DNA from: Candidatus Dojkabacteria bacterium
Lineage (GTDB): Bacteria > Patescibacteriota > Dojkabacteria > GCA-002793355
NCBI GenBank assembly: GCA_030583685.1
Contig: CP129470.1
Span: 20,345-84,344, forward strand
Length of the DNA: 64,000 bases
Direction: 5' to 3'
Below the pieces are notes generated by a model, which worked only from the letters and a program-made list of their open reading frames with translations, did no database searches and was not told where the DNA came from. Shown here piece by piece: positions 1 to 56,467 of the stretch (position 1 is the stretch's first letter; each line of letters opens with the position of its first letter). Both the position numbers and the translations under genes were made by a program.

Positions 1-1674
<1,674 letters not shown>

Positions 1675-1678
<4 letters not shown>

Positions 1679-11129: not shown

Positions 11130-13399
11130 GAATTCCATCACTAGACACATTCGACTTCCTCGCAATACTTCTGTGGATTGCCGTTTTACTTCCCGCTATT
11201 CAATTACCTTCCTCAGCAACGTTCACATTTCTGAGAAGTGTCTTCTTTATTGCTTGGGTCGCGCTGTTTGTACTGTATGTTGCGTTCAGAATCAATGCCG
11301 AGAAAAAGATTGTTTTTTATTCGGCAACAGCGGCTAATGGTTTAATGGCAGCGATAGCTGGTTCTTTCCTACTTTCATTTATACTGTCAGCCTCACCAAT
11401 TGATTCATTATATGGGTATGATCTTTCTTTCTCCTCAAGTTTCCTTGTGTTGATTTCACTGGTCGTATTCTATTTCACGTTGAAACTTGCTGGACTCTCT
11501 CTAGAATACTCAGTATCTCGAATTTTCTCAGTTCTTCCAATAACACTTGTTGCCATAGATTTGATTGCACTCGTGAGTTACCTCCTTCCACAAGGGTTTT
11601 ACACTGCAATCTTTGGTACATATGCCCAATATTTTAGTTTTTTTGCCAATTCACCCGCAGGATTACTTGGTGGCGTATCTCAATCATTGTTTCTCCACAT
11701 CATTGCCTTAGCGGTTGCACTCTGGCAAATTGCGACAGTCTACAAAAAAGGTGAGCCACTCTCACTTGGATTGTATCGACGAGCAGTTGTCGGCGGTTTC
11801 CTTCTATTGGTAACTGCGTATCTCCTGACAGTTTCGTTTACGTTCTCGATTCTTTCTGTTGCCGTGGCATTTGGCGTATTAGCGACCATTGCGTTCCTTA
11901 TTGTGTCCACAAATAACCCGAGAGTAAAGCAATTTGGCGTATTTGCGCTTATTTCTCTGGGTGTTGTTGCCATTATTACCTTTGCAACCCTTCAGCTTGG
12001 AACCTTCGGTACTGCTTCACAAGTTACCATTCCTTCACAAACCTCATCAACAATTATTCAGAATAGTTTCAGAAATCAAGGCGTACAACTATGGCGCTAT
12101 TTCACCGGGTATGGGGTAGGTACATTCCCGTATTTGTACCTACAACATCGTCCAATCGATGCAGCTATTAGATTTGGCAACGACACGTATTTCTTTAAAC
12201 CCGCAACCTTTGTTGGAGAACTCTTTATTGAACATGGTGTCATTGGAGTCCTTGTTCTGCTAGGCTTTCTGACCGCGTTAGTATTAGCTTACAAAGGTGC
12301 AAGCTCAAGAGCGATGATGACTCCAGAAGCTGTCATATTGCTCCTTGCTGTTGGATTCTTGCTTACCTCACCATCTTCGCTCGCCGTTCTCATCGTATTC
12401 TTTGCAGCAGCAGCGGCATTGCTTGATAAAGCAGAATCACTTCCTGAGCTCCTCCCGAGTGTGAGAGCAGTCGATGTAAAAGAATCAACGTACACAAATA
12501 AAGCGGTTGCAAAAACAGGTGTAGCACTCTTGACACTTTCTGTTGCGTACACGCTTTTTGTTGTGCTTTCACTTGTTCCCCCTACAGTTACCATGGCAGG
12601 ATATGCAAAATCATTACAACGATATGCCGTTGCCAAATTACAACTTTCGCAAGGTTCAACAGAATCGTCAAAAACCTTCATGGATGCATATGCACTTGCA
12701 AGTCGATATCGTCAGTATTGCGACAAATGTGCTCAGCTTCCCTATCTCAACCTTAGTACGCTGGTCGCAAGTACAGATCTGTATGCAGGATTAACCTTGG
12801 AACAGCGTAATGCATCAGCTGAGCTACGTGATATTCGAAATATGACACTACAAGGAATTACTGACTTGCTTGGTAAGAATACCATTCGATACGATTATTG
12901 GCTCACAATTTCTCAAGCGTATCAACTTATTGCAGAAGACGAAAAGAGTGCCAGCTTATACATTCTTGCACTACAAGGCGCGAGAAATGCACTTTCAGTT
13001 AACCCTTATTCTGTCGAAGCAAACTATCTCTTCTTAGATATGCTTCTGAAAACGGGAAACACACCAGAAATCAACACTCGTGTGAAAGAGACAGTCGCCT
13101 TGCTCAAACAACTGGTTGGTACACCGTATAGGATTCAGTTTACAGACGGAATCATTGCAGCAAGAGAGCAGAAGTATGACGAAGCAATTTCTCTTTTTGA
13201 AAAGATCAAAACTGAAGCACAAAATGCAGCAAATCTAAACGAGAATGACAAAAAACTTATTGTCTCACTTGCAGAACAGAGAATTGAAGAGGTAAAGAAA
13301 TTGAAGACGGGAACTCCTCAAACTGAGCAGTATACTACGCCGAGACCAACACAAACACCACGTCCAACACCGACCGTAACGCAACAATCTGAAAACTAA
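11099..13399 (+). CDS. Large polytopic membrane protein (about 12 TM; O-antigen-ligase/oligosaccharyltransferase-like topology) with C-terminal TPR-like repeats and a Pro/Thr-rich tail
   Basis: N-terminal 450 aa almost entirely hydrophobic helices; C-terminal helical repeats (AYQLIAEDEKSASLYILALQGARNAL...) resembling TPR; ends in TPRPTQTPRPTPTVTQQ. Confidence 0.5.
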   Translation: MAQQKKRFTLRIPSLDTFDFLAILLWIAVLLPAIQLPSSATFTFLRSVFFIAWVALFVLYVAFRINAEKKIVFYSATAANGLMAAIAGSFLLSFILSASPIDSLYGYDLSFSSSFLVLISLVVFYFTLKLAGLSLEYSVSRIFSVLPITLVAIDLIALVSYLLPQGFYTAIFGTYAQYFSFFANSPAGLLGGVSQSLFLHIIALAVALWQIATVYKKGEPLSLGLYRRAVVGGFLLLVTAYLLTVSFTFSILSVAVAFGVLATIAFLIVSTNNPRVKQFGVFALISLGVVAIITFATLQLGTFGTASQVTIPSQTSSTIIQNSFRNQGVQLWRYFTGYGVGTFPYLYLQHRPIDAAIRFGNDTYFFKPATFVGELFIEHGVIGVLVLLGFLTALVLAYKGASSRAMMTPEAVILLLAVGFLLTSPSSLAVLIVFFAAAAALLDKAESLPELLPSVRAVDVKESTYTNKAVAKTGVALLTLSVAYTLFVVLSLVPPTVTMAGYAKSLQRYAVAKLQLSQGSTESSKTFMDAYALASRYRQYCDKCAQLPYLNLSTLVASTDLYAGLTLEQRNASAELRDIRNMTLQGITDLLGKNTIRYDYWLTISQAYQLIAEDEKSASLYILALQGARNALSVNPYSVEANYLFLDMLLKTGNTPEINTRVKETVALLKQLVGTPYRIQFTDGIIAAREQKYDEAISLFEKIKTEAQNAANLNENDKKLIVSLAEQRIEEVKKLKTGTPQTEQYTTPRPTQTPRPTPTVTQQSEN

Positions 13400-16791: not shown

Positions 16792-16843
16792 CCCGCGACT
16801 TCACTTGTATAAGTACACTGTTTTCTAGTATAATTCTGCAAGT

Positions 16844-16926
16844 GCCGGGGTGGTGGAATGGCAGACACGCTACCTTGAGGTGGTAGTGCCCGTAAGGGTG
16901 TGGAGGTTCGACTCCTCTTCCCGGCA
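16844..16926 (+). tRNA. tRNA-Leu (anticodon GAG) with long variable arm
   Basis: Acceptor GCCGGGG/CCCGGCA pairing, anticodon loop TTGAGGT, long extra arm GCCCGTAAGGGTGT, T-loop GGTTCGACTCC. Confidence 0.85.
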
Positions 16927-16942
16927 TATCTCGATTTTCAAT

Positions 16943-17017
16943 CGGGGCGTAGTTCAGTTGGCTAGAACGCACGGTTTGGGACCGTGAGGTCGCGAGTTCG
17001 AGTCCCGCCGCCCCGAT
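16943..17017 (+). tRNA. tRNA-Pro (anticodon TGG)
   Basis: Acceptor CGGGGCG/CGCCCCG, D-arm GTTCAGTTGGCTAGAAC, anticodon stem-loop CACGG-TTTGGGA-CCGTG, T-loop TTCGAGT; 17 nt after tRNA-Leu. Confidence 0.85.
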
Positions 17018-39574: not shown

Positions 39575-41245
39575 ATGCATACAGAACAAATACTGAAAGA
39601 GACATTGGGGTTAACCGATTATCAAACTCTCGTTTATCTCTCGCTTATTGAGAAATCCGCTACCGCAGGACAGCTGTTTCGACGGTTGAATATTAATCGT
39701 GCAACACTTTATCGAATTCTTGAAGAATTAGTCACGCTGAGCTTAGCAATACGAAAACAAATCAAATCGCGAATGTACTTTGAGGCGCTTCATCCAGACG
39801 CATTAATGGATTTGTACGAGAAACGAAGAATCTCATACGAAGAAAAGGGAAGACTGCTTGAGCGAACAGTTCATGAGCTACTTCACAAAGCGCAGTCACA
39901 ACCACTCGATGCGTCAATCACCATTGAGAAAGGAATCTCTGCACATTACAAAAAAATGAGACTGAAAATGTCCTGTAAAGAAAAAATTATTAGGATGAAA
40001 GTAAATAATGATTCAAATATTTACGATTACACTGAATACCCCGAAGGAAAAGATTATCTGTCTTTTTTATCAAAATTCACCAAACACTGCGCTGAAAATG
40101 ATATTTTCACGAAACTCCTAGTTCACACCAATCTTTCGACATCAATGCGAGATGTTAATATCTCAAATCCATTTGAACTAAAAGAATCACGAATTTTACC
40201 AGCTGAAATACTTCCTACCGTAAGTTTTGAAGTATTTGATGACTACACAATCTTCACCGTACGAAACGATAAACCTGAAGAAATGGTCGTTATTACAATT
40301 CGGAACCAAATTACCGCAGATCTCATGAAATCTCTTTATGACTTTATTTTTGAAAGAAGCATTCAAACCTATAAAGATAGCCCCGTTCCCACCTTTAAAA
40401 CCAACGGAAATGCCAATCTACCGTTGATTGGCATTGGTACCTCAGGAATTGGAGGCTACTGGTACGGTGCGAACCCCTATGTTGATGACACCAGTGATGT
40501 TGATAAACTTCGTCACGCTATGAGTAAAGGTATACGCTATATTGATGCCTGTTTGATGTATGCTGACGGGCACGCGGTAGAATTGATTGCCAAAGCGATT
40601 AAGAATATCGCAAGGAGCGATCTTTTTATTAATGGAAAACTGACACGTGTTGGAGGTATCCCACTCAAAAACGCACGAGAAATAGCGGAACAGTGCGATC
40701 AGTACCTGAAAAAACTTGGAATTGATTACCTTGACCAGTTTCAAATTCACAGCTTGCGAACATTAGGAGATGTCCCTCAGGAAGAGGCAATTGAGCAAAT
40801 TGGAAACCTCATTACTGCGGGAAAAGTACGGTACTGGGGCGTGAGTAACTATGACATGGAAAATCTGAAAATTGCGATGTCTGTTATTAAAGAACCAATT
40901 CATTCAAACGAAATTCCTTTTGGTGTATTCGCCAGAGAGTATGAAAAGAATGGAACACTCGACTTTATGAGAACGCATGGAATTACCACAATTGCTTACT
41001 TCACTGTAAAAAAAGGTGGAATGCTTGTTGATACCTTTTTTAATTCAGATGAAGATTCTATTCTCCAGCAATTAGCTAAAAAGTACCAAAAAACTCCGAC
41101 ACAAATTGCTATTAATTGGGTCACTCACCATCCACGTACTATGGCGGTTATAAAAGCGACCAACGGAACACACATCAACGAAAATGTTGCTGCAGTGGGG
41201 TGGAAAATGGAGGAAGCGGACTATCGAGCAATAGGGGAAACGTGA
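39575..41245 (+). CDS. Fusion of TrmB-like wHTH transcriptional regulator (N-terminus) with aldo/keto reductase (C-terminus)
   Basis: N-terminal LTDYQTLVYLSLIEKSATAGQLFRRLNINRATLYRILEEL (TrmB-type HTH). C-terminal AKR motifs IGIGTSGIGG, YIDACLMYADGH (catalytic Y/D region), K, WGVSNY. Confidence 0.7.
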   Translation: MHTEQILKETLGLTDYQTLVYLSLIEKSATAGQLFRRLNINRATLYRILEELVTLSLAIRKQIKSRMYFEALHPDALMDLYEKRRISYEEKGRLLERTVHELLHKAQSQPLDASITIEKGISAHYKKMRLKMSCKEKIIRMKVNNDSNIYDYTEYPEGKDYLSFLSKFTKHCAENDIFTKLLVHTNLSTSMRDVNISNPFELKESRILPAEILPTVSFEVFDDYTIFTVRNDKPEEMVVITIRNQITADLMKSLYDFIFERSIQTYKDSPVPTFKTNGNANLPLIGIGTSGIGGYWYGANPYVDDTSDVDKLRHAMSKGIRYIDACLMYADGHAVELIAKAIKNIARSDLFINGKLTRVGGIPLKNAREIAEQCDQYLKKLGIDYLDQFQIHSLRTLGDVPQEEAIEQIGNLITAGKVRYWGVSNYDMENLKIAMSVIKEPIHSNEIPFGVFAREYEKNGTLDFMRTHGITTIAYFTVKKGGMLVDTFFNSDEDSILQQLAKKYQKTPTQIAINWVTHHPRTMAVIKATNGTHINENVAAVGWKMEEADYRAIGET

Positions 41246-42007: not shown

Positions 42008-43495
42008 ATGCAAGAACAATATCTTTATCTTGGAAACGAAGAAGTATACAACGGCCAATATATGCTTACGGTCTTTAAATTGGTCCCCTATGGTGACATT
42101 AGTCTAGAAGATGTTGCTTCTGAAATCGCAGCAGAATCCTCGACTGGCTCAAACCTCAAGGTCGGAACAATGACACCATATTCCCAAGGAATTGACGCGA
42201 GAGTCTATAAAATTGATAAGGAGAAAAATCTTGCGTATATTGCATACCCCTGGAGCATGTTCGACCGAGTCGGAAATGTTCAGAATATTCTCACATTTAT
42301 CGCTGGAAATGTATTTGGTGTTTCAGAAGTTAAAGAATGCAAACTCCTTGATGTGTGGTTTCCTCCGCAAATGCTTTCTCAATACGATGGGCCATCAGTA
42401 ACCCTTGATGATATGCGTGATTACTTGCAGAATTATGATAGACCTGTTCTTGGAACAATCATCAAACCAAAGATTGGGTTAACGTCAACTGAGTACGCAG
42501 AAGTTTGTTACGATTATTGGGTTGGAGGGGGAGATTTCGTGAAAAACGATGAACCTCAAGCCGATCAAGTCTTTTCTCCATACGAAAAAATGGTAGTGTC
42601 GGTTCGTGAAGCAATGGATAGAGCAGAGGATGTCACTGGCCATACGAAAGTACACTCCTTCAACGTTTCCGCTGCAGACTTTGACACAATGCTGAAACGC
42701 GCAGAATATGTTGCATCTGTAATGAAACCGGGAAGTTATGCCTTCCTCGTTGATGGCATTACTGCAGGCTGGACTGCGGTACAAACGATTCGCCGTCACT
42801 TTCCGAATGTATTCCTCCATTTTCACCGCGCAGGACATGGGGCATTCACTCGACGAGAGAATCCAATTGGTTATTCAGTTCTTGTACTTTCCAAGTTCGC
42901 TCGTTTAGCTGGCGCTTCAGGAATCCACACAGGAACTGCAGGAATCGGTAAAATGGCAGGAGATGCAGTAGAGGACATCACTGCGGCACAAAATATTCTC
43001 AGACTGCGCGCAAAAGGAATCGCTTTTGACCAAACATGGAGTGAAATTCCAGAAACAGATTTAGACATCCAAGCAGCAATCAAGAAAGAGGAAGAATTGT
43101 GGTCACAGGGAGCGCAAGGGATTATGAAATCTCGCAGCGACGGACTCGATACCGTTCTTGAGAGAAAAACTTCATGGAGATTAATCAACAAAACTGCACC
43201 AATCATCTCAGGAGGGCTCAACCCTGTCTTGTTACCGCAATTTATTGATACGATTGGAACGATTGACTTTATTACCACCATGGGCGGAGGAGTTCATTCT
43301 CATCCAGACGGAACGACCAAAGGAACAATGGCGGTTGTACAAGCATTTGAAGCCTGGAAAAATGAAATTCCACTCGCAGAATATGCAAAAGATCACCCAG
43401 AGCTTGCAAAGGCAATTGAATACTACGACAAACACGGCACACAAGCACATCGAGCAGAAAACAAAGCTGTGTACAACAACGAAGAAGCAGTATAA
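42008..43495 (+). CDS. rbcL: Ribulose-1,5-bisphosphate carboxylase/oxygenase large subunit, form II/III (archaeal/CPR-type), catalytic residues intact
   Basis: GTIIKPKIGL (K175 region), GGGDFVKNDEPQ (carbamylated Lys plus D/E metal ligands), HFHRAGHG (H294/R295), GIHTGTAGIGKMAG (H327/K334), C-terminal GGGVHSHP. No small subunit in the window. Confidence 0.85.
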   Translation: MQEQYLYLGNEEVYNGQYMLTVFKLVPYGDISLEDVASEIAAESSTGSNLKVGTMTPYSQGIDARVYKIDKEKNLAYIAYPWSMFDRVGNVQNILTFIAGNVFGVSEVKECKLLDVWFPPQMLSQYDGPSVTLDDMRDYLQNYDRPVLGTIIKPKIGLTSTEYAEVCYDYWVGGGDFVKNDEPQADQVFSPYEKMVVSVREAMDRAEDVTGHTKVHSFNVSAADFDTMLKRAEYVASVMKPGSYAFLVDGITAGWTAVQTIRRHFPNVFLHFHRAGHGAFTRRENPIGYSVLVLSKFARLAGASGIHTGTAGIGKMAGDAVEDITAAQNILRLRAKGIAFDQTWSEIPETDLDIQAAIKKEEELWSQGAQGIMKSRSDGLDTVLERKTSWRLINKTAPIISGGLNPVLLPQFIDTIGTIDFITTMGGGVHSHPDGTTKGTMAVVQAFEAWKNEIPLAEYAKDHPELAKAIEYYDKHGTQAHRAENKAVYNNEEAV

Positions 43496-44689: not shown

Positions 44690-45554
44690 CTATGTTTTCC
44701 TCAACTTCAGCAGGAAAAAACCATTCATATATTTCGTTCATATATTCAGTATCAACATCCCAATGCGTCTTTCCCTTCAGTGTCACCAATTCAAGCGGCA
44801 CAGAGTGCTTTTTGAAATACGTTGCTAATTCCTCAGCTACCCAATAGGGAACATTCACGTCAGCCGTTCCATGCCAAACCTTCAATCTGACTTGGCTGAA
44901 TTGTTTGATTTGCGCTGCGGAGTATGTTTCAATTTGCTGTGCAGGCGCAAGGAGTGCAATTTTTTTCACTTCTTTTGGATATGTCACCACATGACGCATC
45001 GCAGGCATTCCACCCATGCTAAAGCCTAGAATATACACGTTTCCTGAGGTCGGATAGCGATCCTGTACCCATTTAATGAGCGCTCTTGAATCTTCGACTG
45101 CAACGATTCGACCAAAATTATCCCCATGCTGGTTTGAAGCCAGAAAAGCAACATTTCTTTCTGTAAAGAAAGAACCGTATTCACGCATATTTTTCATAAC
45201 TTGCTCAGAAAAATTCGTAGTAATTCTTTGCGTTGAACCGTGATAGTACATAACTATTGCTGGTGGCTTATCCTCCTGTATTTTCATTGGATAGGCTACA
45301 TATCCCTGTTCTCCACCGAGCTTTGGCGTTTTCTCAAAAAAATGCTCAGCGCCAGGTGCTGCTTTTTCCTCGAACATGATGGTAACAGGAGTGGGTTCAG
45401 GAGTTGTCGGCAGAGGGGTTGGCGTGATGGTCTCTGGATTATCTTGTTGTTGCTCATCTCTGTTAACGGATAATTGTCCCGAAAAGTAAAGCATTGCGAA
45501 CACAATAAGTGAGAAGAGGGTCAACAGGAGTGAAGCGTGAAGTAATCCTTTCAT
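44673..45554 (-). CDS. Secreted/anchored alpha/beta-hydrolase (esterase/S9-like) with Pro/Thr-rich linker
   Basis: N-terminal hydrophobic anchor, TPTPLPTTPEPTPVT linker, nucleophile elbow ILGFSMGG (GxSxG), downstream Asp and His (HWD). Confidence 0.65.
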   Translation of the reverse strand: MKGLLHASLLLTLFSLIVFAMLYFSGQLSVNRDEQQQDNPETITPTPLPTTPEPTPVTIMFEEKAAPGAEHFFEKTPKLGGEQGYVAYPMKIQEDKPPAIVMYYHGSTQRITTNFSEQVMKNMREYGSFFTERNVAFLASNQHGDNFGRIVAVEDSRALIKWVQDRYPTSGNVYILGFSMGGMPAMRHVVTYPKEVKKIALLAPAQQIETYSAAQIKQFSQVRLKVWHGTADVNVPYWVAEELATYFKKHSVPLELVTLKGKTHWDVDTEYMNEIYEWFFPAEVEENIVTPSP

Positions 45555-46321
45555 TTTTGATTATACGCTACCATTGCAGAGAGAGCTATAAACCATTAGA
45601 ATGTGCTATGCCCGATCAATTTATTTCCTCCATGACTCACCATCTCAATCAAGAAATCACCTTGGTTTTATCGAAAAAAACATCACGTGCGTTTGAGCAA
45701 ATTGAAGCAACATACCCAGTGTATTTAAAAAAAGTCACAAAACATGACACGAGCATCGAAATAAGTTGTGTTCCCGTTGGCAGTTCCGTCAAGCAAGCCT
45801 TCTTGACTGTAAGAATTCCAATAACTGCTCACTTTATTCAAAAACAGGACAATTCCTGGAGAATACACTATGAAGAAGATTCGTTTACACGTATCGTTAC
45901 GCTTGTATTCCCAAAACCTCAGTATCAGCCATCACGAGATATCACTTCAAGTAAACCAAGTAAACCACTCATTAAAGAATTCAAAAATGCCCACGGCAAG
46001 GTTGAGAGAATATATGTTGAGACCCATGCACCGGAAGTTACGCTGTCCTATTTGAAAAAAGTGCAGGAATTATTGGAAAAACTTCTCCGCCACTGGTATA
46101 GCGTCACAATCACCTCCAATAACACTGAACTTTCTCGGCTTTCGATATTCAAAAAAATGGAGTTACTCCTTATCCCGGGTAACCCCCTCTTTGAGGCCAC
46201 TTTTCTCTCTGATGAAGAGGAATTTATTACAGAGATCCCGGCTTCCTTCAAAATTGATTTGGTTAAAAATGAGATTTCTTTCACTGTCGATCGTGATTCT
46301 ATAACTATTCGGAAAAAATAA
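45509..46321 (+). CDS. Hypothetical protein (probable true start at the internal MPDQFISS Met)
   Basis: ORF only; no motif recognised. Confidence 0.3.
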   Translation: MRRGSTGVKREVILSFLIIRYHCRESYKPLECAMPDQFISSMTHHLNQEITLVLSKKTSRAFEQIEATYPVYLKKVTKHDTSIEISCVPVGSSVKQAFLTVRIPITAHFIQKQDNSWRIHYEEDSFTRIVTLVFPKPQYQPSRDITSSKPSKPLIKEFKNAHGKVERIYVETHAPEVTLSYLKKVQELLEKLLRHWYSVTITSNNTELSRLSIFKKMELLLIPGNPLFEATFLSDEEEFITEIPASFKIDLVKNEISFTVDRDSITIRKK

Positions 46322-47325: not shown

Positions 47326-47402
47326 GGGCAGCTAGCTCAGCTGGTTAGAGCACTTCATTGACATTGAAGAGGTCACAAGTTCGAATCTTGTGCTGCCCAC
47401 CA
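47326..47402 (+). tRNA. tRNA-Val (anticodon GAC) with encoded CCA
   Basis: Acceptor GGGCAGC/GCTGCCC, D-arm TAGCTCAGCTGGTTAGAGCA, anticodon loop TTGACAT, T-loop GGTTCGAATCC, 3' ACCA. Confidence 0.85.
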
Positions 47403-47431: not shown

Positions 47432-47460
47432 TTGTCCCTCTCTTGACATTGGTGTATAAT
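47432..47460 (+). promoter_or_regulatory. Predicted sigma70-type promoter of surface-protein gene 1 (-35 TTGTCC, 17-nt spacer, -10 TATAAT within the GGTGTATAATTG motif)
   Basis: Hexamers read directly from the sequence; the same GGTGTATAATTG motif recurs upstream of the paralog at 49031-49042. Confidence 0.35.
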
Positions 47461-47492
47461 TGTTAACCTTAATTTATTTATATAAGGTCACT

Positions 47493-48950
47493 ATGCTTAG
47501 ATTTCAACAGCTTATAGCGAAAACACTTTCCGTTGTTTTACTCTTTTCTTTATATGTAGCGGCACCACTCTTTTCCTTTGCTGCAAACAATCCAACTAGC
47601 GCATATAATGACAAAAAGGACAATTCAAAGGTAGAAATTTGTCATAGAACAAGTTCCAAGAATAATCCATACGTGTATGTAAAAATCTCTAAGAATGCAC
47701 AGCACACACACGAAGATCATCATCAAGATTTTGCTTACAAGGGACCAAAAAATCCCTCTCAGAAGACTGGAGATAACTGGTGTAATGATAATGCACCAGA
47801 AAACAACCATGAGGATGAAGATGAGGATGAAGATGAAGACAAAAAGGATAAGAAGGACAAGAAAGTCAACATTTGTCATGCGACAGGAAGCAACAGTAAC
47901 CCTTATGTCGCAATTTCAGTTGAAAAGAGCTCACTGACTGCACACCTTTCTCATGGAGACTTTCTCTATTTTGGTCCACTAAAACACGGCAAGATTGACG
48001 ATAAAAAGGGCGATAAATGGTGCCGCGACAACGCTCCTGAGCCAACAGGAACGCCAACCGATACACCGACCGATACACCAACCGATACACCAACTGATAC
48101 ACCAACTGATACACCAACCGACACACCAACCGACACACCAACTGACACGCCAACTGATACTCCAACCGATACACCGACCGACACACCAACTGATACGCCA
48201 ACTGATACTCCAACTGACACTCCAACCGATACACCGACTGACACGCCAACTGATACTCCAACCGATACACCGACCGACACACCAACTGATACGCCAACTG
48301 ACACTCCAACCGATACACCGACTGACACGCCAACTGACAAGCCAACTGATACTCCTGTGGAAACAACACTTCCTCCCGTAACCACAACCACTGTACCAAC
48401 CACTCCTCCAGGTGGTGGAGGAAACCCTCCAGTCATTGTCAATTTGCCCCCAGTTACTACTCCAACCCCAGACGTTCAGGGAGAAACAACTGATCCTGAG
48501 CCTGAGGTGTTAGGAGCACTCAGCTGTGCAAACCCAGTCAAACTCGTCGGTATTACCTATGTAGACGAAAATAAGAACGGTGCCTATGACTTCGGTGAGG
48601 ATTTATTATCCAATATCACGGGTAAAGTGACATACACCGAAAACGATGTTGAATACTTTGTTGGCTACTTCATCAGTGATAATGAAGGTCGCTGGGAACT
48701 TCCCGTTTGTCCTCGAGAATACGATGTAACCATCAATAGAGGCTCAATTCCACAAGGAATTATGGATAGTGAAGAAGTTCACAAGGTAACAGTACTTGCG
48801 ACTCAACCAGAGACACTACTCTTTATGGCGTTGCTCATAACAACGTCCTGGACCTGGTCTTGGTGGTGGCTCCTCCTTGCGTTATTCATTCTCGCAGTCA
48901 TCTATTACCTTTATAGAAGAAGAAGGCAATATATCGCAGATAACACCTAA
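47493..48950 (+). CDS. Cell-surface protein: signal peptide, two ICH-x-T-S-x3-NPYV repeat modules, acidic DEDEDEDEDKKDKKDKK stretch, about 25 TPTD tandem repeats, SdrD-B-like Ca-binding domain (YVDENKNGAYDFGED), C-terminal W-rich TM anchor
   Basis: All elements seen directly in the translation. ATG at 47493 preferred over the upstream TTG at 47460 because of promoter placement. Confidence 0.6.
   Translation: MLRFQQLIAKTLSVVLLFSLYVAAPLFSFAANNPTSAYNDKKDNSKVEICHRTSSKNNPYVYVKISKNAQHTHEDHHQDFAYKGPKNPSQKTGDNWCNDNAPENNHEDEDEDEDEDKKDKKDKKVNICHATGSNSNPYVAISVEKSSLTAHLSHGDFLYFGPLKHGKIDDKKGDKWCRDNAPEPTGTPTDTPTDTPTDTPTDTPTDTPTDTPTDTPTDTPTDTPTDTPTDTPTDTPTDTPTDTPTDTPTDTPTDTPTDTPTDTPTDTPTDTPTDTPTDTPTDKPTDTPVETTLPPVTTTTVPTTPPGGGGNPPVIVNLPPVTTPTPDVQGETTDPEPEVLGALSCANPVKLVGITYVDENKNGAYDFGEDLLSNITGKVTYTENDVEYFVGYFISDNEGRWELPVCPREYDVTINRGSIPQGIMDSEEVHKVTVLATQPETLLFMALLITTSWTWSWWWLLLALFILAVIYYLYRRRRQYIADNT
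48051..48353 (+). repeat. Perfect in-frame 12-nt tandem repeat (ACNGAYACNCCR)n encoding (TPTD)n, about 25 units
   Basis: Visible periodicity gataca-cca/ccg-ac(c/t); synonymous-site variation only; generates spurious ORFs on the opposite strand. Confidence 0.9.
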
Positions 48951-49012
48951 AGAAAACGAGGGCGGGTTATCTAACCAATAAGAGATCATTGCGTTGTACA
49001 AATTTAACTGTC

Positions 49013-49039
49013 TTGACAAATCATATTTGGGTGTATAAT
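49013..49039 (+). promoter_or_regulatory. Predicted sigma70-type promoter of surface-protein gene 2 (-35 TTGACA, 15-nt spacer, -10 TATAAT inside GGTGTATAATTG)
   Basis: Hexamers read from the sequence; the -10 context is identical to the paralog promoter; ATG 34 nt downstream. Confidence 0.4.
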
Positions 49040-49072
49040 TGAGTAACACAAGCTTAATTATATAGGCCAGTT

Positions 49073-52000
49073 ATGAAAATCCCAAGACTAGGAAAAATAT
49101 TCACAAATACCACCGCAATTATGATTGCGCTCTGGTTGTATGTTGTCTCGCCATTATCAACAATATATTTCCTTGGAGGAATTCCAAGGGTCAGTGCAAA
49201 TAATGGAAACAATGTCGCAATATGTCATGTCAACGACAAGATTGTGGAAGCAAGCAAAAATTCTGCAAATGGAACAACAAAGATACTTGTCCCTGAAAAC
49301 ATCGTTGCACTTGGGCTGGACCAGATGACTCTATGGTGCAAAGCTGGAGCTCCTACAGAGTGGCCACCTGTAACTCCCTCGCCCACGTCCACACCCACAC
49401 CTTCACCTACTGTTACAGATACACCCACACCTTCCCCAACTAGTGAGGAACCGGTCATTACCTCCCTCGATGCTCCCACTAACCTTCGCTTCTCCTCACC
49501 AACCCTTGCGTGTGGTGCAATTACCAATGCTACGCCAGTCACAGTTGAGTGGAATGCAGTTGAAAACGCAGTTTCTTATGACTATGAAATTGACTATCCA
49601 TTACCTGCAGGCGGTCGATCCCCATGGTCTACGGTTAAATATATGACCTCACATTCTGGCCCAATCAATGAAGGAACCTCTTATATCAGAGTTCGCGCAG
49701 TCGCAGCAAACGGAGTAAAATCCGACTGGAGTGAACCATGTGCAATCACAAGTGACATCACAGCACCAGCAAAACCAACCGGGTTACAATGGCTTAACCT
49801 TTATCGTTCGCAGACCTATGCCTGCGGAGCAACAGCACCAAGAGCTCCATACATTCCGGACTGGAATGATATTTCTGATGACCCAACATTTTCTCACTAT
49901 GAATATACTTCTTTTTGGCCAAACGGAGACAAAGGACTCATTGAGATGTCACTCACTACCTCAGAATTTGACAACGATTGGCCACCACCATACGACGGAT
50001 TTTATGGGTTTGCAGTTCGCTCTGTAGATTTCGCAGGCAATAAATCAGCATGGGCACTTTCAGATGACACCCTTACTGGCAGCTGCAAAATCGAACTGCT
50101 TGCAGATGAAGAAGCACCAGAGTTACACCTTCCCGAAGATTTTACTGAAGAAGCTCAACAACAATTTGGCGCAGTCGTATCCTATATTGCGTCAGCAACG
50201 GATGATGTCACATCACCTATCGAAGTTTCATGTACACCAGCGTCTGGAACTCTTTTCCCCATGGGACCGACGACGGTAAATTGTTCTGCAACTGATGATT
50301 CAGGGAAAACAACCACGGGGAGTTTTACCGTAACCGTAGAAGATACTATTGCACCACAAAAGCCAACTGGTCTTCACCGAGATAACCAAGCACGAACAAA
50401 ATCGTATGTATGTGGCGATGTGGTTACGCTACAAACTCTCATACCCGATTGGGACGATATCACTGATGACCCAACATTTTCGCACTTTGAATATACCTCT
50501 TTCAACCCGGGCGGACAAGTTGGAATTAACGAGCAGGTAGTTTTCGTTTCCGAATACCTCCATACCTGGATACCAACAGTTGAAGATACACACGGCTTTG
50601 CAGTTCGCTCCGTAGATTATTCGGGGAACAAATCAGAATGGGCACTAACTGCCAAAACACTTGAGGGTAGTTGTCAAATCACCTATGATTCGACGGCACC
50701 AGCTGTTGAAATCACCCATCCTACTGATATCTATTTAAGCGGAGAAGTACCCATCAGAGGAACCGTACAAGATGATAATCTTCTTCGCTACTGGACTGTC
50801 GTTCATAAAAAAGGAACGACATCGCCAACAATTGCTGGTCTAGGAACGGTCAACACTACCGTTACCTTTACAGATAAACTCCTTTTCACCTGGGATACAA
50901 CTGAAACACCAGATGGAGAATATACCATCAAGCTTGAGGCAAGAGATCAAGCAGACAACAAAAACAGCAGTTCTGTTCACTGGAAAGATGTCATTGTCGA
51001 TAATACGGCACCAACCGTCGATCTTGTGTTTCCAGTTATCGGAACCACGGCAACCTATTTTCAAGCAGTTTTTAGTGAAAATGTTCGACAAGAAGATGCT
51101 GAAAACCCTGAAAATTACTTTTTAAACAATTGGCCAGGAGCAGGTGGATCTGGAAACCTTCTTGGTGATGCAACAATTGAGTACGACGAAACCACGTTTA
51201 CCGCAACAATTACTTTTACCAATCCTGGGTGGTATGTTTCGCCAGAACAACAATGGGGTGTATCAAATGTTCGTGATCTTGCAGGCAACCCTCTTTCAGT
51301 TTCACCCTACATAGAATATTCAACACCGATGATTGCACCAGTGACAACTAACGACTCACCATCAGGCTGGCAGAATTCAGACATTACCGTAACCCTAACC
51401 TGTGATGACGGAACACTTCTCGTCGATGCAAGTGGCTGTAAAACTACCTATTATCGTGTCAATGGTGGCTCTTGGCAAACAGGGAACACTGTTGTTCTCA
51501 CAGAGGAAGGAGAACACACACTAGAATATTATTCCACGGATAATGCAGGAAACAGTGAAACAGAAAAGACTGCGACCAATGTCATTAAAATCGACAAGAC
51601 CTTACCCTTCGTCTTTGTCCCGGAAAATCAAACCTTTGACGAGGACGAAACAGGAACATACTTTTACACATTCGAGCCCACTGCTTCGGAAAATGAATTT
51701 GAAACACTCGCGGAACTAACTGACACACTCCCAGTGAATTGTAATTATGACCCGACCGGATACGCGTACCCAGCAGGAGTAACCACAGTGACCTGTTCAG
51801 CAACTGACCGAGCAGGTAATGTGAAATCAGAAAGCTTTACGATCACCGTCAATAATCTTGTTCCTAGTGTCACCATTGCGGCTGAACTTCTAGGGTCAGG
51901 AGCATATACGTTTACTGCCGCAGTTCTTGGTGGAAACACACCATACACATACGCTTGGAGTGGCAGTTGCTCAGGGACAACCGCACAGACGACAACCGCA

Positions 52001-52627
52001 ACAACCCCAGGGACATACAACTGTTCTCTCCTCGTCACTGATGCTGATGGTGATACAGACACCGAAAGTATCTCTCGAACGATTCCTGCACCAGTAATTG
52101 CAACAGCAATCATTCCTGCAGTGCAAGGAGTAACAACCGAGGACGAGGAAGATGAAGAGACAGAGGAGACCGAAGAAGAACAAGGAGAAGTACTTGGTGA
52201 AAGAATTTGTAGTGATAAAACGGCATTTACCGCGATATTTTATGTCGATAAGAACAATAATGGGCAATTCGATGAAGGAGAGGCGTATGAGGGAACAGTC
52301 GAGGGTTCAATCACCTATGAGGTTGATGGAATCACCTATACGGCAGACACCTTCAAAGCCGAATTTAACGGACTCTTTGTTGGATCAGTTTGTCCTGGCG
52401 ACTATACAATAAAGGTTACACCAACGTCACTTCCGAATACTGTTGACGTTGCGGGTGTCTATACGATAACCGTTTCGGAAACTGGGCCAAATAATGTTTT
52501 CTTTGCACTTCTCCAGAAAGAAGCAACCCAAAAATCACTCTGGTGGTTGTGGTGGCTGATCGCTACAATCGTTGCCTTTATGGTGTTCATTGGATTGCGT
52601 TACAGAAAGAACCAGTACAGTTCTTAA
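49073..52627 (+). CDS. Giant (1184 aa) cell-surface adhesin-like protein: signal/anchor, one ICH module, PT-rich linker, two copies of a roughly 190-aa repeat, two HYR-like Ig-fold domains, further Ig/FN3-like beta domains, acidic EDEEDEETEETEEEQ stretch, SdrD-B-like domain, C-terminal W-rich TM anchor
   Basis: Repeat pair P(A/Q)KPTGL...IPDW(N/D)DI(S/T)DDPTFSH(Y/F)EYTSF...GFAVRSVD(F/Y)(A/S)GNKS(A/E)WAL. HYR-like signatures ...CSATDDSGKTTTGSFTVTV and ...VTCSATDRAGNVKSESFTITV. C-terminal architecture shared with the upstream paralog. Confidence 0.6.
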   Translation: MKIPRLGKIFTNTTAIMIALWLYVVSPLSTIYFLGGIPRVSANNGNNVAICHVNDKIVEASKNSANGTTKILVPENIVALGLDQMTLWCKAGAPTEWPPVTPSPTSTPTPSPTVTDTPTPSPTSEEPVITSLDAPTNLRFSSPTLACGAITNATPVTVEWNAVENAVSYDYEIDYPLPAGGRSPWSTVKYMTSHSGPINEGTSYIRVRAVAANGVKSDWSEPCAITSDITAPAKPTGLQWLNLYRSQTYACGATAPRAPYIPDWNDISDDPTFSHYEYTSFWPNGDKGLIEMSLTTSEFDNDWPPPYDGFYGFAVRSVDFAGNKSAWALSDDTLTGSCKIELLADEEAPELHLPEDFTEEAQQQFGAVVSYIASATDDVTSPIEVSCTPASGTLFPMGPTTVNCSATDDSGKTTTGSFTVTVEDTIAPQKPTGLHRDNQARTKSYVCGDVVTLQTLIPDWDDITDDPTFSHFEYTSFNPGGQVGINEQVVFVSEYLHTWIPTVEDTHGFAVRSVDYSGNKSEWALTAKTLEGSCQITYDSTAPAVEITHPTDIYLSGEVPIRGTVQDDNLLRYWTVVHKKGTTSPTIAGLGTVNTTVTFTDKLLFTWDTTETPDGEYTIKLEARDQADNKNSSSVHWKDVIVDNTAPTVDLVFPVIGTTATYFQAVFSENVRQEDAENPENYFLNNWPGAGGSGNLLGDATIEYDETTFTATITFTNPGWYVSPEQQWGVSNVRDLAGNPLSVSPYIEYSTPMIAPVTTNDSPSGWQNSDITVTLTCDDGTLLVDASGCKTTYYRVNGGSWQTGNTVVLTEEGEHTLEYYSTDNAGNSETEKTATNVIKIDKTLPFVFVPENQTFDEDETGTYFYTFEPTASENEFETLAELTDTLPVNCNYDPTGYAYPAGVTTVTCSATDRAGNVKSESFTITVNNLVPSVTIAAELLGSGAYTFTAAVLGGNTPYTYAWSGSCSGTTAQTTTATTPGTYNCSLLVTDADGDTDTESISRTIPAPVIATAIIPAVQGVTTEDEEDEETEETEEEQGEVLGERICSDKTAFTAIFYVDKNNNGQFDEGEAYEGTVEGSITYEVDGITYTADTFKAEFNGLFVGSVCPGDYTIKVTPTSLPNTVDVAGVYTITVSETGPNNVFFALLQKEATQKSLWWLWWLIATIVAFMVFIGLRYRKNQYSS

Positions 52628-55357: not shown

Positions 55358-56467
55358 ATGAGAGAACTCCGTTTAAAAGGACAAGCATTGGCACTCGTGC
55401 TGATTGTTATTGTCGTTGCCATCGTTGTTGCGTTTGCGATTACAAACCGTGTTGTTGAAGATATTCGTCAGCAAGGAGAGGAACGTGCATCAACAAGAGC
55501 AGAAACTATTGCTGAAGGTGCAATTGAGCAGCTCACCATGCAAATTCAAAGTCAAATGGAGAACGTCATGCCCGCCACGGGCGAGCAGTTCAAAATTTTC
55601 GCCATTAGCAATGAGGCACCAGACGGCAGCGCTTACGAAACGCTTGACCTATGCAAACCTGACTCAGAAGCAGATGTGAGTGAACAATGTGATAAAAATA
55701 GTCTTGCCCAAATCAATTACTACAAACAGATTATTCAGTTTAAACTCTTTTCAAATGAGAGTATTGAGGCATTTATGGAAAACACAAACGAATCAACAGG
55801 GTCTCTCAACCCTATTATCATTCACCTAAAAAATAATGATTCTTTTCAGAAAACTGGTTCACATCTCTTAGTAAAAGGATTTGTTCGAAAGGTTCCGGTG
55901 TCAGGTAGAGAAGGTGGAGGTTCAAATAGTGCACCAATTTTACAGGTTGTCGGAGACTGCATTATTCAGCTCAATGCTGGAGATACTGCCTCTGCTGCTT
56001 GCCTCCCGAATACGACATTAGAATTGAATCGCGTTACTTGCCCGACAGATGTCCCTGTAATCCCCAATCCAGCAGAACCAGCTTCACAAGTAAAAACATC
56101 CCTTGCTGGAGAAGATGGAATTTGTTTCAAAGTTAGTCCAAAAACTCCCGTTTCGACGTACCGAATCAAACCCATGCTTGCAGCTCGTGCACAAGATACG
56201 GAAGTACCTTATGTTGATGTGAGCGTTACCGGAGCGTCAGCAGAATCTTCATATTTACTTCCTGTCAATCAAATGGCAATGATTACGGCAGGAGTATTTG
56301 CAGGTGCAACAGGAAGTGATCAACAGGTTTACCAACAATCAACACGATTACTCCTGATAAACAAAACTGTACCTGAAATTGCTGATTACGTTTTGTACAA
56401 CGGTTCAGACAAACCTATTACAAAATGTAAGACCAGCACAGCAGATGCAACGTGTGGGAACGATTAG
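55358..56467 (+). CDS. N-terminally anchored extracytoplasmic protein of unknown function
   Basis: Single N-terminal TM (ALALVLIVIVVAIVVAFAI); Cys-containing, Thr/Ser-rich body; no enzymatic motif. Confidence 0.3.
   Translation: MRELRLKGQALALVLIVIVVAIVVAFAITNRVVEDIRQQGEERASTRAETIAEGAIEQLTMQIQSQMENVMPATGEQFKIFAISNEAPDGSAYETLDLCKPDSEADVSEQCDKNSLAQINYYKQIIQFKLFSNESIEAFMENTNESTGSLNPIIIHLKNNDSFQKTGSHLLVKGFVRKVPVSGREGGGSNSAPILQVVGDCIIQLNAGDTASAACLPNTTLELNRVTCPTDVPVIPNPAEPASQVKTSLAGEDGICFKVSPKTPVSTYRIKPMLAARAQDTEVPYVDVSVTGASAESSYLLPVNQMAMITAGVFAGATGSDQQVYQQSTRLLLINKTVPEIADYVLYNGSDKPITKCKTSTADATCGND

Follow-up and report, generated by a model that had tools for sequence, protein, structure and literature searches.

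Two adjacent genes for probable adhesin-like, modular surface proteins in a Candidatus Dojkabacteria genome

Sdr-family MSCRAMM adhesins combine a signal peptide, a distal binding region, a low-complexity repeat spacer, a Ca-loop-bearing prealbumin-type B domain and a C-terminal hydrophobic helix with a basic tail. The two Dojkabacteria proteins described here have the same parts, with TPTD, in gene 1, in place of SD as the spacer repeat, in a host that is a CPR bacterium. They have no LPXTG motif and are therefore probably anchored in the membrane rather than the wall. Their single B-like domain adjoins the membrane, following the spacer instead of preceding it, and scores under the Pfam SdrD_B threshold; the distal ends carry Cys/His (CH) modules or HYR/Big arrays where the MSCRAMMs have an IgG-like A region. 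The CnaB/SpaA stalk domains of Gram-positive pilins and adhesins are likewise seven-strand prealbumin-type sandwiches in a stalk position, and the best fold match among them is 8bdw, CnaB2 of L. plantarum (TM 0.60, 13% sequence identity). The Dojkabacteria domains show no evidence of an isopeptide bond and have instead a Cys pair and an EF-hand-like loop.

Two further groups of surface proteins are close to one gene each. The HYR/Big_13/Big_3_3/OmpL47-type multi-domain proteins resemble gene 2, which clears the curated thresholds for these domains and differs by adding a membrane-anchored SdrD_B-like end and an allelic mosaic. The CH modules of gene 1 are clear members of an uncurated repeat family with the pattern K-V-x-I-C-H-x-T-G-S-x-x-N-P-Y-V ... 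H-x-x-H-G-D ... C, whose proteins carry only labels of the 'hypothetical protein' type (e.g. WP_084048049.1 of Deinococcus hopiensis). Gene 1 has the long form of the module, ending GDxWCxDNxP and found mostly in CPR-type surface proteins, where it directly follows the signal peptide, whereas most members have a short form ending IPxPxxGCP. Many members are LPXTG proteins, in contrast to the plain transmembrane (TM) anchor of gene 1, and gene 1 is unlike most members examined in joining the modules to an SdrD_B-like domain.

The genes lie in a 64-kb window, the whole stretch of DNA analysed, from a MAG of Candidatus Dojkabacteria (CPR/Patescibacteria), a tiny uncultured bacterium. All features given below are on the + strand of this window. 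Gene 1 (47493..48950; 485 aa counted from the ATG, with the mechanical ORF beginning further upstream at TTG 47460) and gene 2 (49073..52627; 1184 aa; NCBI WKZ24059.1, 'HYR domain-containing protein') are adjacent and co-oriented, at the place that an earlier note on this DNA had given from the ORF listing; at these lengths its term 'giant' is an overstatement. The order of elements in gene 1 is signal peptide, two CH modules, (TPTD)25 spacer, SdrD_B/CnaB-like domain and TM anchor. The same 12-nt promoter-like box precedes both genes, and both products have a Sec-type signal peptide and a shared C-terminal cassette. To this extent the tandem pair with shared ends described in the note stands; the ICH module that it assigned to both genes has bona fide copies in gene 1 only. 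The ends are alike and the displayed middles unlike, a TPTD spacer in one and an Ig-like array in the other, as the note had it. Both products have the look of modular surface proteins that are exported and anchored in the membrane by their C-termini, and they are probably adhesin-like type I membrane proteins of a known kind, a reading in which we infer location, topology and adhesion from sequence. The uncurated Cys/His module is the sole real novelty of the gene pair.

Within the 64 kb the box GGTGTATAATTG has exactly two occurrences: one at 47451, 42 nt upstream of the gene 1 ATG, and one at 49030, 43 nt upstream of the gene 2 ATG. The promoter-like region of gene 1 (47432..47462), whose function is putative, begins 30 nt downstream of tRNA-Val (47326-47402) and consists of TTGTCC (47432-47437), a 17-nt spacer and TATAAT (47455-47460) inside the 12-mer (47451-47462). 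In the corresponding region of gene 2 (49013..49041), TTGACA (49013-49018) is followed by a 15-nt spacer and TATAAT (49034-49039), again inside the 12-mer (49030-49041). A scan allowing 16–18-nt spacers did not call the gene 2 promoter, its TTGACA being only 15 nt from the –10 box. The shared –10 context proposed earlier is thus present in both genes, but the –35 assignment is less regular: the gene 2 spacing is 15 nt, and gene 1 has a TTGACA of its own merely 6 nt from its –10 box. Aligned locally, the two upstream regions reach a score of 28; shuffled sequences score 15.8 ± 2.6, and 4 of 2000 attain 28. The intergenic region ahead of gene 2 is 100% identical in strain L027. The two genes probably share a promoter type.

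Gene 1 opens with a Sec-type signal peptide (aa 1–30; 47493..47582) read from the sequence, with a putative cleavage site at ...FSFA/ANN. It is followed by CH module 1 (aa 46–102; 47628..47798; KVEICHRTSSKNNPYV...HTHEDHHQD...WCNDNAP), an acidic/basic low-complexity linker (ENNHEDEDEDEDEDKKDKKDK; 47799..47861) and CH module 2 (aa 124–182; 47862..48038; KVNICHATGSNSNPYV...AHLSHGD...WCRDNAP). The TPTD spacer (48051..48350) is a 12-nt tandem array of 25 units with a 48-nt higher-order period, confirming the simple spacer described before, and a second Pro/Thr-rich linker (aa 287–339; 48351..48509) connects it to the C-terminal domain. The orthologue of gene 1 in contig L027 is 98–99% identical and has 21 TPTD units, so spacer length may vary; the difference may be an artefact of short-read assemblies, in which contigs end at the array. 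The 12-nt unit stays in frame, and the repeat is therefore incapable of on/off switching.

The two modules of gene 1 are 48% identical to each other and score 65.8 bits (module 1) and 90.5 bits (module 2) against a family HMM built solely from outside homologues. The ICH...NPYV module is thus real and present twice, although its size is about 57–59 aa and not the roughly 30 aa first proposed. It is bracketed by cysteines (ICH ... WCxDNAP), and the part shared across the whole family is an N-terminal core of about 35 aa. The judgement that the module is not a nameable domain was sound: no match was found in Pfam-A 2025, NCBIfam r20 or the PDB. The earlier note missed the very large, cross-phylum family to which the module belongs, which has at least 1,907 library representatives (50%-identity clusters, E ≤ 1e-3) in many phyla. 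About 106 of 149 members examined have signal-like N-termini and about 53 of the 149 LPXTG-like ends; the first module starts at a median residue of 91 among the members examined, and a sortase gene adjoins the homologue in Arthrobacter oryzae. The domains SdrD_B, SpaA, DUF11 and Big are found together with family members, and the combination with an SdrD_B-like domain was seen in 2 of 54 members examined. The family is typical of secreted, sortase-linked or TM-anchored proteins of Actinomycetota, Chloroflexota, CPR and other phyla.

Among 37 diverse modules C5, H6, H28, D33 and C54 never vary, and a third His almost never does. The confident AF2 model of the module (pLDDT 92.4 for module 1) predicts a β-hairpin followed by two helices and has no fold match in the PDB or BFVD. 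A disulfide between the two cysteines is most likely, as is a metal or ligand site made up by the His/His/His/Asp set. These histidines could also be read as catalytic, the module being a His-Me-finger-like (ββα-metal) nuclease or another enzyme that serves stalked nucleic-acid scavenging by a nucleotide-auxotrophic CPR cell. In the predicted topology strand 1 ends with the invariant His, the hairpin loop contains a conserved Asn, and a pair of His residues lies on the helix, a spacing that may resemble the H...N...H...H of HNH motifs. No HNH or His-Me Pfam match was found in the 37 modules, nor was any sequence match in the PDB. Modules of the family come in tandem sets of 2–11 with PT linkers between them, and such a set is often an entire small protein, an arrangement typical of binding or structural repeats and not of enzymes. 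We regard catalysis as very improbable and favor a binding site.

The C-terminal 147 aa of the two proteins are 31% identical (E 1e-19). In this cassette a Cys-bracketed β-sandwich that carries an EF-hand-like loop is followed by a Trp-rich TM helix and then a basic tail. Helix and tail are conserved between the two sequences, as are both cysteines and the loop pattern DxNxNGxxDxGE. These two sequences alone define the cassette; searches found no further relatives apart from SdrD_B-type repeats. In gene 1 the sandwich spans aa 340–448 (48510..48836) and includes the loop DENKNGAYDFGE (48564-48599); the helix WTWSWWWLLLALFILAVIYYLY and the tail RRRRQYIADNT follow (48849..48947; helix 107–150 of the AF2 model). 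In gene 2 an acidic linker (52139-52189) precedes the sandwich (aa 1041–1147; 52193..52513), which contains the loop DKNNNGQFDEGE (52247-52282) and is followed by the helix LWWLWWLIATIVAFMVFIGL and the tail RYRKNQYSS (52538..52624), both read from the sequence. The AF2 model of the C-terminal domain is of medium confidence (pLDDT 73, with the putative Ca loop least confident) and shows a β-sandwich and a long helix. Its best PDB fold matches are CnaB2 (probability 1.0), transthyretin-like proteins and streptococcal pilins, with weak Foldseek E-values (0.02). No direct Pfam match to SdrD_B or Cna_B was obtained; however, hhalign aligns the cassette to a repeat array in L022 with 90% probability (E 1.5e-6), and one repeat of that array clears the Pfam SdrD_B threshold. 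The 'SdrD-B-like' label thus holds for the fold and through this indirect profile link, and model and profiles together support a prealbumin/CnaB-type sandwich distantly linked to SdrD_B.

The helix and basic tail might instead be a cleavable sorting signal, with a sortase-like or other, possibly unknown, enzyme attaching the proteins covalently to the wall as in MSCRAMMs. The tripartite layout is similar, LPXTG-like signals end about a third of CH-module proteins elsewhere, and the A. oryzae homologue has its neighboring sortase gene. However, neither protein has LPXTG, another known sorting motif or any common short motif ahead of the helix, and the 64-kb window contains no sortase signature. 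Matches to NCBIfam C-terminal sorting models (Loki-, MYXO- and Heimdall-CTERM) are weak, all below their cut-offs and confined to gene 1. Wall attachment is accordingly improbable, and a plain membrane anchor is the preferred reading.

Gene 2 begins with a signal peptide (aa 1–42; 49073..49198) read from the sequence, with a putative cleavage site at ...RVSA/NN. The long hydrophobic N-terminal region is also compatible with an uncleaved signal anchor. The Cys-bracketed tip segment that follows (aa 47–94; 49211..49354; NVAICH...WCKAGAP) had been read as a further copy of the invariant ICH core. It keeps only V-x-I-C-H and WCxxGAP of the CH module and has none of the T, S, NPY, two helix His and Asp of the family, so that C, H and C are its sole family-invariant residues; the family HMM gives it –4 bits and hhalign a probability of 2%, and another allele has Leu in place of the His. 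At most the tip appears to be a degenerate relic of a CH module.

These results bear on the proposal that the genes are tandem paralogues arisen by duplication and domain shuffling, with three homologous functional ICH modules and a dedicated display system using a special W-rich anchor. In its favor, beyond the shared ends, V-x-I-C-H and WCxxGAP are absent elsewhere in the window and, with the signal peptide and PT linker as reference points, gene 2 has them in the same place as gene 1. Both tip cysteines are kept in both gene 2 alleles, and Marmoricola genomes also contain tandem pairs of CH-module genes. The full proposal is nevertheless doubtful, given the tip scores and the His-to-Leu change. 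Any duplication or shuffling must be old, because the shared ends are merely 31% identical. A Trp-rich start of the C-terminal helix is widespread among unrelated CPR surface proteins, LPXTG-bearing or not, and lends no support to a special anchor family. The proteins look like modular surface proteins, but no dedicated 'display system' is evident. The promoter box, 5' leader, signal peptide and anchor cassette common to both genes point to old common ancestry or end exchange, and not to a recent duplication.

The middle of gene 2 is Ig-like, as proposed, with two HYR domains, Big_13, Big_3_3 and an OmpL47-type barrel. Scores exceed the curated thresholds for HYR (46.5 vs 21.7 bits), barrel_OmpL47 (85.7 vs 40 bits), Big_13 and Big_3_3. 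An internal duplication (49766..50701; DNA repeats 588 nt apart) comprises unit A1 (aa 232–345), HYR domain 1 (aa 345–422; 50105-50338) and unit A2 (aa 428–543). The conserved array downstream (50699..52117) comprises a Big_3_3-like domain (aa 543–660), the OmpL47-type barrel/Big_13 (aa 771–836) and HYR 2 (aa 845–935), and a PKD-like match covers aa 935–1015 below threshold. About 330 aa are without domain assignment (aa 129–345 and the duplicated unit, aa 428–543).

We infer the following arrangement at the cell surface. The precursors would be exported by Sec via a cleavable N-terminal signal peptide until the C-terminal hydrophobic helix halts translocation, leaving the protein membrane-anchored with its Trp cluster at the outer membrane interface and its Arg/Lys tail in the cytoplasm. 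Next to the membrane would stand the sandwich, presumably disulfide-bracketed, whose single DxNxNGxxDxxE loop probably binds Ca2+, by analogy with SdrD B domains, and stiffens the base of the stalk. A spacer would hold the distal end off the cell: about 150 Pro/Thr-rich aa including (TPTD)25 in gene 1, and about 900 aa of HYR, Big, OmpL47-type and PKD-like domains in gene 2. The distal ends would be the working parts of both proteins, with gene 1 displaying two 57–59-aa Cys/His modules and gene 2 an Ig-like array whose outer 600 aa are allelic.

This outer half of gene 2 is allelically replaced between otherwise ~99.9% identical strains, which the earlier note had not seen. Between strains the neighboring genes are 99.8–100% identical, gene 1 98.6–100% and gene 2 88.5%, with the differences confined to 49.1–50.9 kb. 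Strains with ~99.9% identical flanks diverge by ~25% at the nucleotide level in the replaced block (aa ~10–610; 49100..50902), and dS is 1.68 in the block against 0.01 in the rest of the gene. The tip is the most variable part (51% identity between allele classes). Diversity-generating retroelements are frequent in CPR, and the restriction of the variation to one gene could suggest such targeted hypermutation, or phase variation, in place of allelic recombination. The 1.8-kb block is, however, saturated at synonymous sites with a dN/dS of 0.08, it shows every type of substitution (A accounts for 135 of 445 mismatches, matching base composition), just two discrete allele classes are seen, each 99.8% identical within itself, and the in-frame TPTD unit provides no switch. 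Together these findings effectively refute hypermutation or phase variation of gene 2. In its outer 600 aa gene 2 has at least two alleles of ancient divergence, and homologous recombination probably exchanged them between otherwise near-identical strains. Frequency-dependent selection on a surface that contacts a partner or host, or that a phage or predator targets, would fit the allele pattern.

Two adjacent, co-oriented genes for surface proteins lie at 47493–48950 (+) and 49073–52627 (+). Gene 1 encodes 485 aa from its ATG (the mechanical ORF start is a TTG at 47460) and gene 2 encodes 1184 aa, so that neither product is giant, as an earlier note on this DNA had called them. A tRNA-Val gene (47326–47402) is positioned directly upstream of gene 1, and a guanylate-kinase-like gene is convergent with gene 2 at its 3' side. 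By exact look-up the proteins of this region are NCBI WKZ24053–WKZ24061, encoded on an 888,748-bp contig of a Candidatus Dojkabacteria MAG, with gene 2 corresponding to WKZ24059.1, annotated 'HYR domain-containing protein'.

The likeliest products of both genes are type I membrane proteins exported through Sec, in which the C-terminal helix would serve as the anchor. In gene 1, the signal peptide (aa 1–30) is followed by a Cys/His-rich (CH) module, an acidic/basic linker, a second CH module and an array of 25 TPTD units (aa 187–286; 48051–48350) with a 12-nt period and a 48-nt higher-order period. The rest of the protein consists of another PT-rich linker, a sandwich domain (aa 340–448) and a transmembrane (TM) helix. 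Gene 2 begins with a signal peptide, a tip segment, a PT linker and an unassigned β-rich region containing an internal duplication. Its middle part consists of an HYR domain, Big_3_3, an OmpL47-type barrel/Big_13 match (85.7 bits), a second HYR domain and a sub-threshold PKD-like segment, and it ends with an acidic linker, a sandwich domain and a TM helix. The overall plan resembles that of the MSCRAMM adhesins, but the two proteins lack sortase anchoring. This architecture is conventional and of a known kind; what is new is a widespread, uncurated CH module in gene 1 and an allelic mosaic in gene 2.

The gene 1 CH unit is bracketed by two cysteines (K-V-x-I-C-H ... W-C-x-D-N-A-P), and its two copies share 48% identity. 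An HMM built only from sequences outside the window detects both, at aa 44–103 (65.8 bits) and aa 121–183 (90.5 bits). The 'ICH' module proposed in the earlier note is therefore genuinely present twice in gene 1, but it spans 57–59 aa rather than about 30. Searching a profile of the two copies against 1.84 billion 50%-identity cluster representatives returned 1,907 representatives at E ≤ 1e-3, 317 of them at E ≤ 1e-10, often with 2–11 copies per protein. Most matches reach no further than the first ~37 positions, with ...H-G-D-I-I-P-x-P-x-x-G-C-P at their end (the short form); about 20 have the long form seen here, H-G-D-F-L-Y-x-G-P...G-D-x-W-C-x-D-N-x-P. Among 37 modules with core identity below 60%, C5, H6, H28, D33 and C54 never vary, and H31 hardly does.

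The view that this is not a domain one can name is borne out: Pfam-A and NCBIfam contain no match to these 37 CH modules or to seven whole family members, and a PDB sequence search with the modules found none. Source records name the family members only 'hypothetical protein' or after another part of the protein. A literature search on the motif returned nothing relevant, and searches on its context brought up only general papers on sortases, adhesins and SdrD. A word-indexed protein search with the ICH region, the C-terminal alignment and a 17-module alignment also gave no match. Since that collection contains the exact gene 2 product, together with five proteins from the same 90%-identity cluster, these blanks are taken to reflect a limit of the index and are not read as an absence of relatives.

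The AF2 model of the CH module (pLDDT 92.4 with a 17-sequence alignment) consists of two strands (4–10 and 18–24) and two helices (25–34 and 48–57), and a Foldseek search with it found nothing in PDB or BFVD. The gene 1 modules are probably disulfide-stapled and possibly bind a metal or another ligand. Heme attachment through the 'CH' pair was rejected, as matches to CxxCH families are at noise level and the module has no CxxCH motif. A thioester or isopeptide domain was rejected because no such family matches and the module is too small. A His-Me finger or HNH nuclease is unlikely, as neither an HNH-type model nor a ββα-metal fold matches. A far-reaching reading, which we regard as improbable, is that the CH module at the gene 1 tip represents an undescribed, phylum-spanning extracellular metal-binding mini-domain. 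It would be a disulfide-stapled β-hairpin-plus-helix 'metal finger' with a His3/Asp site, serving as the functional tip of surface proteins in Actinomycetota, Chloroflexota, CPR and other groups for metal capture, recognition of a ligand or partner, or even catalysis. In Dojkabacteria, a length-variable TPTD stalk would carry it tens of nanometres away from the cell, beside a recombining, allelically variable adhesin.

Genome contigs place the CH family in Arthrobacter, Marmoricola, Thermoleophilia and Acidimicrobiia; in Chloroflexota; in Saprospiraceae, Flavobacteriales and Rubricoccaceae; in Nitrospirales and a deltaproteobacterium; and, within the CPR, in Nomura-, Magasanik-, Moranii- and Paceibacteria. 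Scanning viral contigs recovered a single locus, indicating that viruses seldom carry the module. Most proteins that contain it are secreted or displayed on the surface, with signal-like N-termini in ~106 of 149 and LPXTG-like ends in ~53 of 149. The median start of the first module is residue 91, and the modules sometimes lie beside SdrD_B, SpaA, DUF11, Big or PA14 domains. In the cultivable Arthrobacter oryzae, a gene for a small two-module CH protein has a sortase-domain gene directly 3' of it (locus at 5803–7770 of contig L005). Marmoricola MAGs contain tandem pairs of CH-module genes (L003, 3000–5314; L006, 4346–6729), and V-H-A-G-L is conserved before the C-terminal helix in all four Marmoricola CH proteins, where it could be an unrecognised sorting motif. 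The module occurs in at least 1,900 clusters from many phyla, cultivable Arthrobacter included, and has a confident predicted fold without a solved analogue. Its curation, together with a single experimental structure, would give thousands of surface proteins now called 'hypothetical' an annotation.

A third copy, placed at 49.2 kb in gene 2 by the earlier note, finds no support. The segment in question (aa 47–94, NVAICH...WCKAGAP) scores –4.0 bits against the family HMM and 2% probability over 8 columns in hhalign. It retains only V-x-I-C-H and W-C-x-x-G-A-P, so that the invariant set C, H, H, D and C is reduced to C, H and C, and in the alternative gene 2 allele the tip His is replaced by Leu while both Cys are kept. 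Judged by sequence, the gene 2 tip would be at most a degenerate Cys-bracketed relic, unsupported as a CH family member. The Ig-like middle of gene 2 is as the note described it, with HYR, Big_3_3 and Big_13/OmpL47-type domains. Pfam HYR (PF02494) matches at 46.5 bits against a gathering score of 21.7, over aa 345–422 and aa 845–935. The internal duplication comprises DNA repeats at 49766–50107 and 50354–50701, 588 nt apart and 72–84% identical. These encode Cys-bracketed units of ~115 aa on either side of the first HYR domain, neither of which matches any Pfam family.

Gene 2 is also the variable member of the pair. In contigs L023, L024 and L027, which come from separate sequencing runs and are nearly identical to this one, the flanking proteins are 99.8–100% identical and gene 1 is 98.6–100% identical, whereas gene 2 is just 88.5% identical. 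All of its differences fall within ~49.11–50.9 kb (aa ~10–610), where nucleotide divergence is ~25%; dS is 1.68 and dN/dS 0.08 in this block, against a dS of 0.01 for aa 611–1184. Two discrete allele classes are present, between which the tip segment is 51% identical and the remaining block 81%. Targeted hypermutation by a diversity-generating retroelement (DGR) would also concentrate change in one region, but DGR variable proteins are defined by a short variable region with adenine-specific substitutions. The block here is 1.8 kb long, contains every type of substitution and is saturated in dS. With two allele classes and divergence confined to the block, the gene 2 pattern bears, as far as sequence comparison can tell, the marks of recombination that swapped in an allele of ancient divergence, not those of hypermutation.

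The TPTD array of gene 1 may vary in length. Short-read (Logan) contigs L001, L023, L024, L025, L026 and L028 all end inside it, and the one contig that crosses it, L027, has 21 units rather than 25, a difference that may be real or may come from collapse of the repeat in the assembly. Exact look-up of the gene 1 product found nothing on record, and its absence as a full-length catalogue product is explained by short-read assemblies breaking in the repeat. Such systematic breaks imply that genes of this kind are under-represented in metagenome catalogues.

The two proteins share a C-terminal cassette. The final 147 aa align with 31% identity (BLASTP E 1e-19), and both sequences keep a pair of Cys, Y-V-D-x-N-x-N-G-x-x-D-x-G-E, V-C-P, W..WWL and a basic tail, among other invariant positions, confirming the shared Cys-bracketed terminus and its Ca-loop motif. 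The loops DENKNGAYDFGE (gene 1 aa 358–369) and DKNNNGQFDEGE (gene 2 aa 1059–1070) both match D-x-N-x-N-G-x-x-D-x-x-E. They have the EF-hand-like form of SdrD-type B domains, with ligands at positions 1, 3, 5, 9 and 12 and Gly at 6, and are putative Ca2+ sites. Pfam SdrD_B (PF17210) and Cna_B do not match at E ≤ 10, whether the C-terminal domains are searched alone or within the whole proteins, and a PDB sequence search with the domain found no match. The AF2 model (pLDDT 73) shows a β-sandwich followed by one long helix. Its best Foldseek match is the CnaB2 structure 8bdw (probability 1.0, TM-target 0.60, rmsd 3.6) with a weak E of 0.02, followed by transthyretin-like proteins, streptococcal pilins and carboxypeptidase regulatory domains. 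The model thus superimposes on the seven-strand β-sandwich of the prealbumin-like/CnaB type, at weak E-values.

A putative remote link to SdrD_B comes from a Bacteroidota metagenome contig (L022), which encodes a type IX-secreted protein with tandem repeats resembling the C-terminal domain. One repeat exceeds the SdrD_B gathering score (31.0 versus 29.7 bits), and a profile of the two window sequences aligns with the repeat array at 90% hhalign probability (E 1.5e-6, 56 columns), making the connection to SdrD_B transitive. The earlier label 'SdrD-B-like' thus holds for fold, motif and probable remote homology, given the CnaB2 match and the L022 link, yet does not extend to direct membership of the Pfam family. 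The L022 gene itself (121–3072; Ga0164241_10006322) encodes a T9SS-sorted product with Por_Secre_tail, DUF7619, PKD and three tandem SdrD_B-type repeats, which contain the same 'IDANNNGAYDFGE' loop as the domain described here; this Ca-loop sandwich is evidently spread over surface proteins that are otherwise unrelated.

Both C-termini form a Trp-rich hydrophobic helix followed by an Arg/Lys tail. Neither contains an LPXTG-like motif (TIGR01167/PF00746) or matches an LPXTG_anchor model in NCBIfam or Pfam, and no sortase signature or LPXTG partner was found within the 64 kb. NCBIfam sorting models remain below their cut-offs for gene 1 (Loki-CTERM 12.9 versus 19.9, MYXO-CTERM 10.9 versus 20, Heimdall-CTERM 10.1 versus 24), and gene 2 matches none of the C-terminal sorting models (PEP-, MYXO-, Loki-, Heimdall-CTERM and similar). 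The suggestion that the W-rich helix marks a special anchor family is not sustained. Trp residues also open the C-terminal helix in other CPR surface proteins (PRWGWIL in contig L014, HPWWSAII in L020, NLWWFLG in protein P0119), and in another such protein, P0135, the helix sequence LPATGDNSLWWYLL follows an LPXTG motif. We read the Trp cluster as an interfacial aromatic belt rather than a new sorting family.

The two genes also share a putative –10 region. The box GGTGTATAATTG occurs at exactly two sites in the 64 kb, 47451 and 49030, located 42 and 43 nt 5' of the start codons, and the likeness continues into the 5' leader (TTAnTTATATAnG). The upstream regions give a local alignment score of 28, against 15.8 ± 2.6 in shuffled sequences, a score reached by 4 of 2000 shuffles. 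The shared promoter claimed earlier is supported by this common box and only in part by the –35 elements, whose spacing is unequal: TTGTCC lies 17 nt from the –10 box in gene 1 and TTGACA 15 nt from it in gene 2. Gene 1 also has a TTGACA, only 6 nt from its –10 box and so unusable as its –35 element. The whole region upstream of gene 2 is 100% identical in another strain. A recent duplication would account for the identical box, but since the coding ends are just 31% identical, a selected shared regulatory signal would explain it better.

CPR bacteria (Patescibacteria), Dojkabacteria among them, probably spend their lives attached to other cells, which makes their surface proteins likely points of host contact; to our knowledge, almost none of these proteins have been characterised. 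Each protein of the pair is predicted to carry a membrane-proximal CnaB/SdrD_B-type domain with a loop that may bind Ca2+, and the long spacers would push the distal parts outward: two CH modules in gene 1 and an allelically variable Ig-like array in gene 2. Alongside the observed domain content, homologies, family size and allele structure, we infer a role in adhesion or contact for both proteins. The locus is a candidate contact pair, in which one protein is conserved and the tip of the other is exchanged between alleles; this tip is the part on which partners or phages most likely exert selection.

Elsewhere in the window, ORFs at 45509–46321 (+; 270 aa) and 11099–13399 (+; 766 aa) have no Pfam match; for the former, gene callers choose a later start in L026–L028, giving 226–237 aa. 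The 369-aa product of 55358–56467 (+) has an N-terminal hydrophobic segment (MRELRLKGQALALVLIVIVVAIVVAF...), no Pfam match and 99% identity between strains, and may be a pseudopilin-like or other envelope protein. A RuBisCO large-chain gene is present at 42008–43495 (Pfam 2e-94), close to a gene at 39575–41245 in which a TrmB-type HTH is fused to an aldo/keto reductase. RuBisCO in CPR genomes is usually tied to nucleoside salvage. Beside tRNA-Leu (16843–16927) and tRNA-Pro (16942–17017), the segment 17598–28734 forms a low-GC island (29–34% GC versus ~41% elsewhere). It contains a type I restriction-modification operon (HsdM, HsdS, HsdR), a PIN-domain protein, an AAA/ABC-like ATPase of 916 aa that weakly resembles AbiEii-type proteins and a 392-aa protein without a family match, and it has the look of a defence island gained by horizontal transfer next to tRNA genes.
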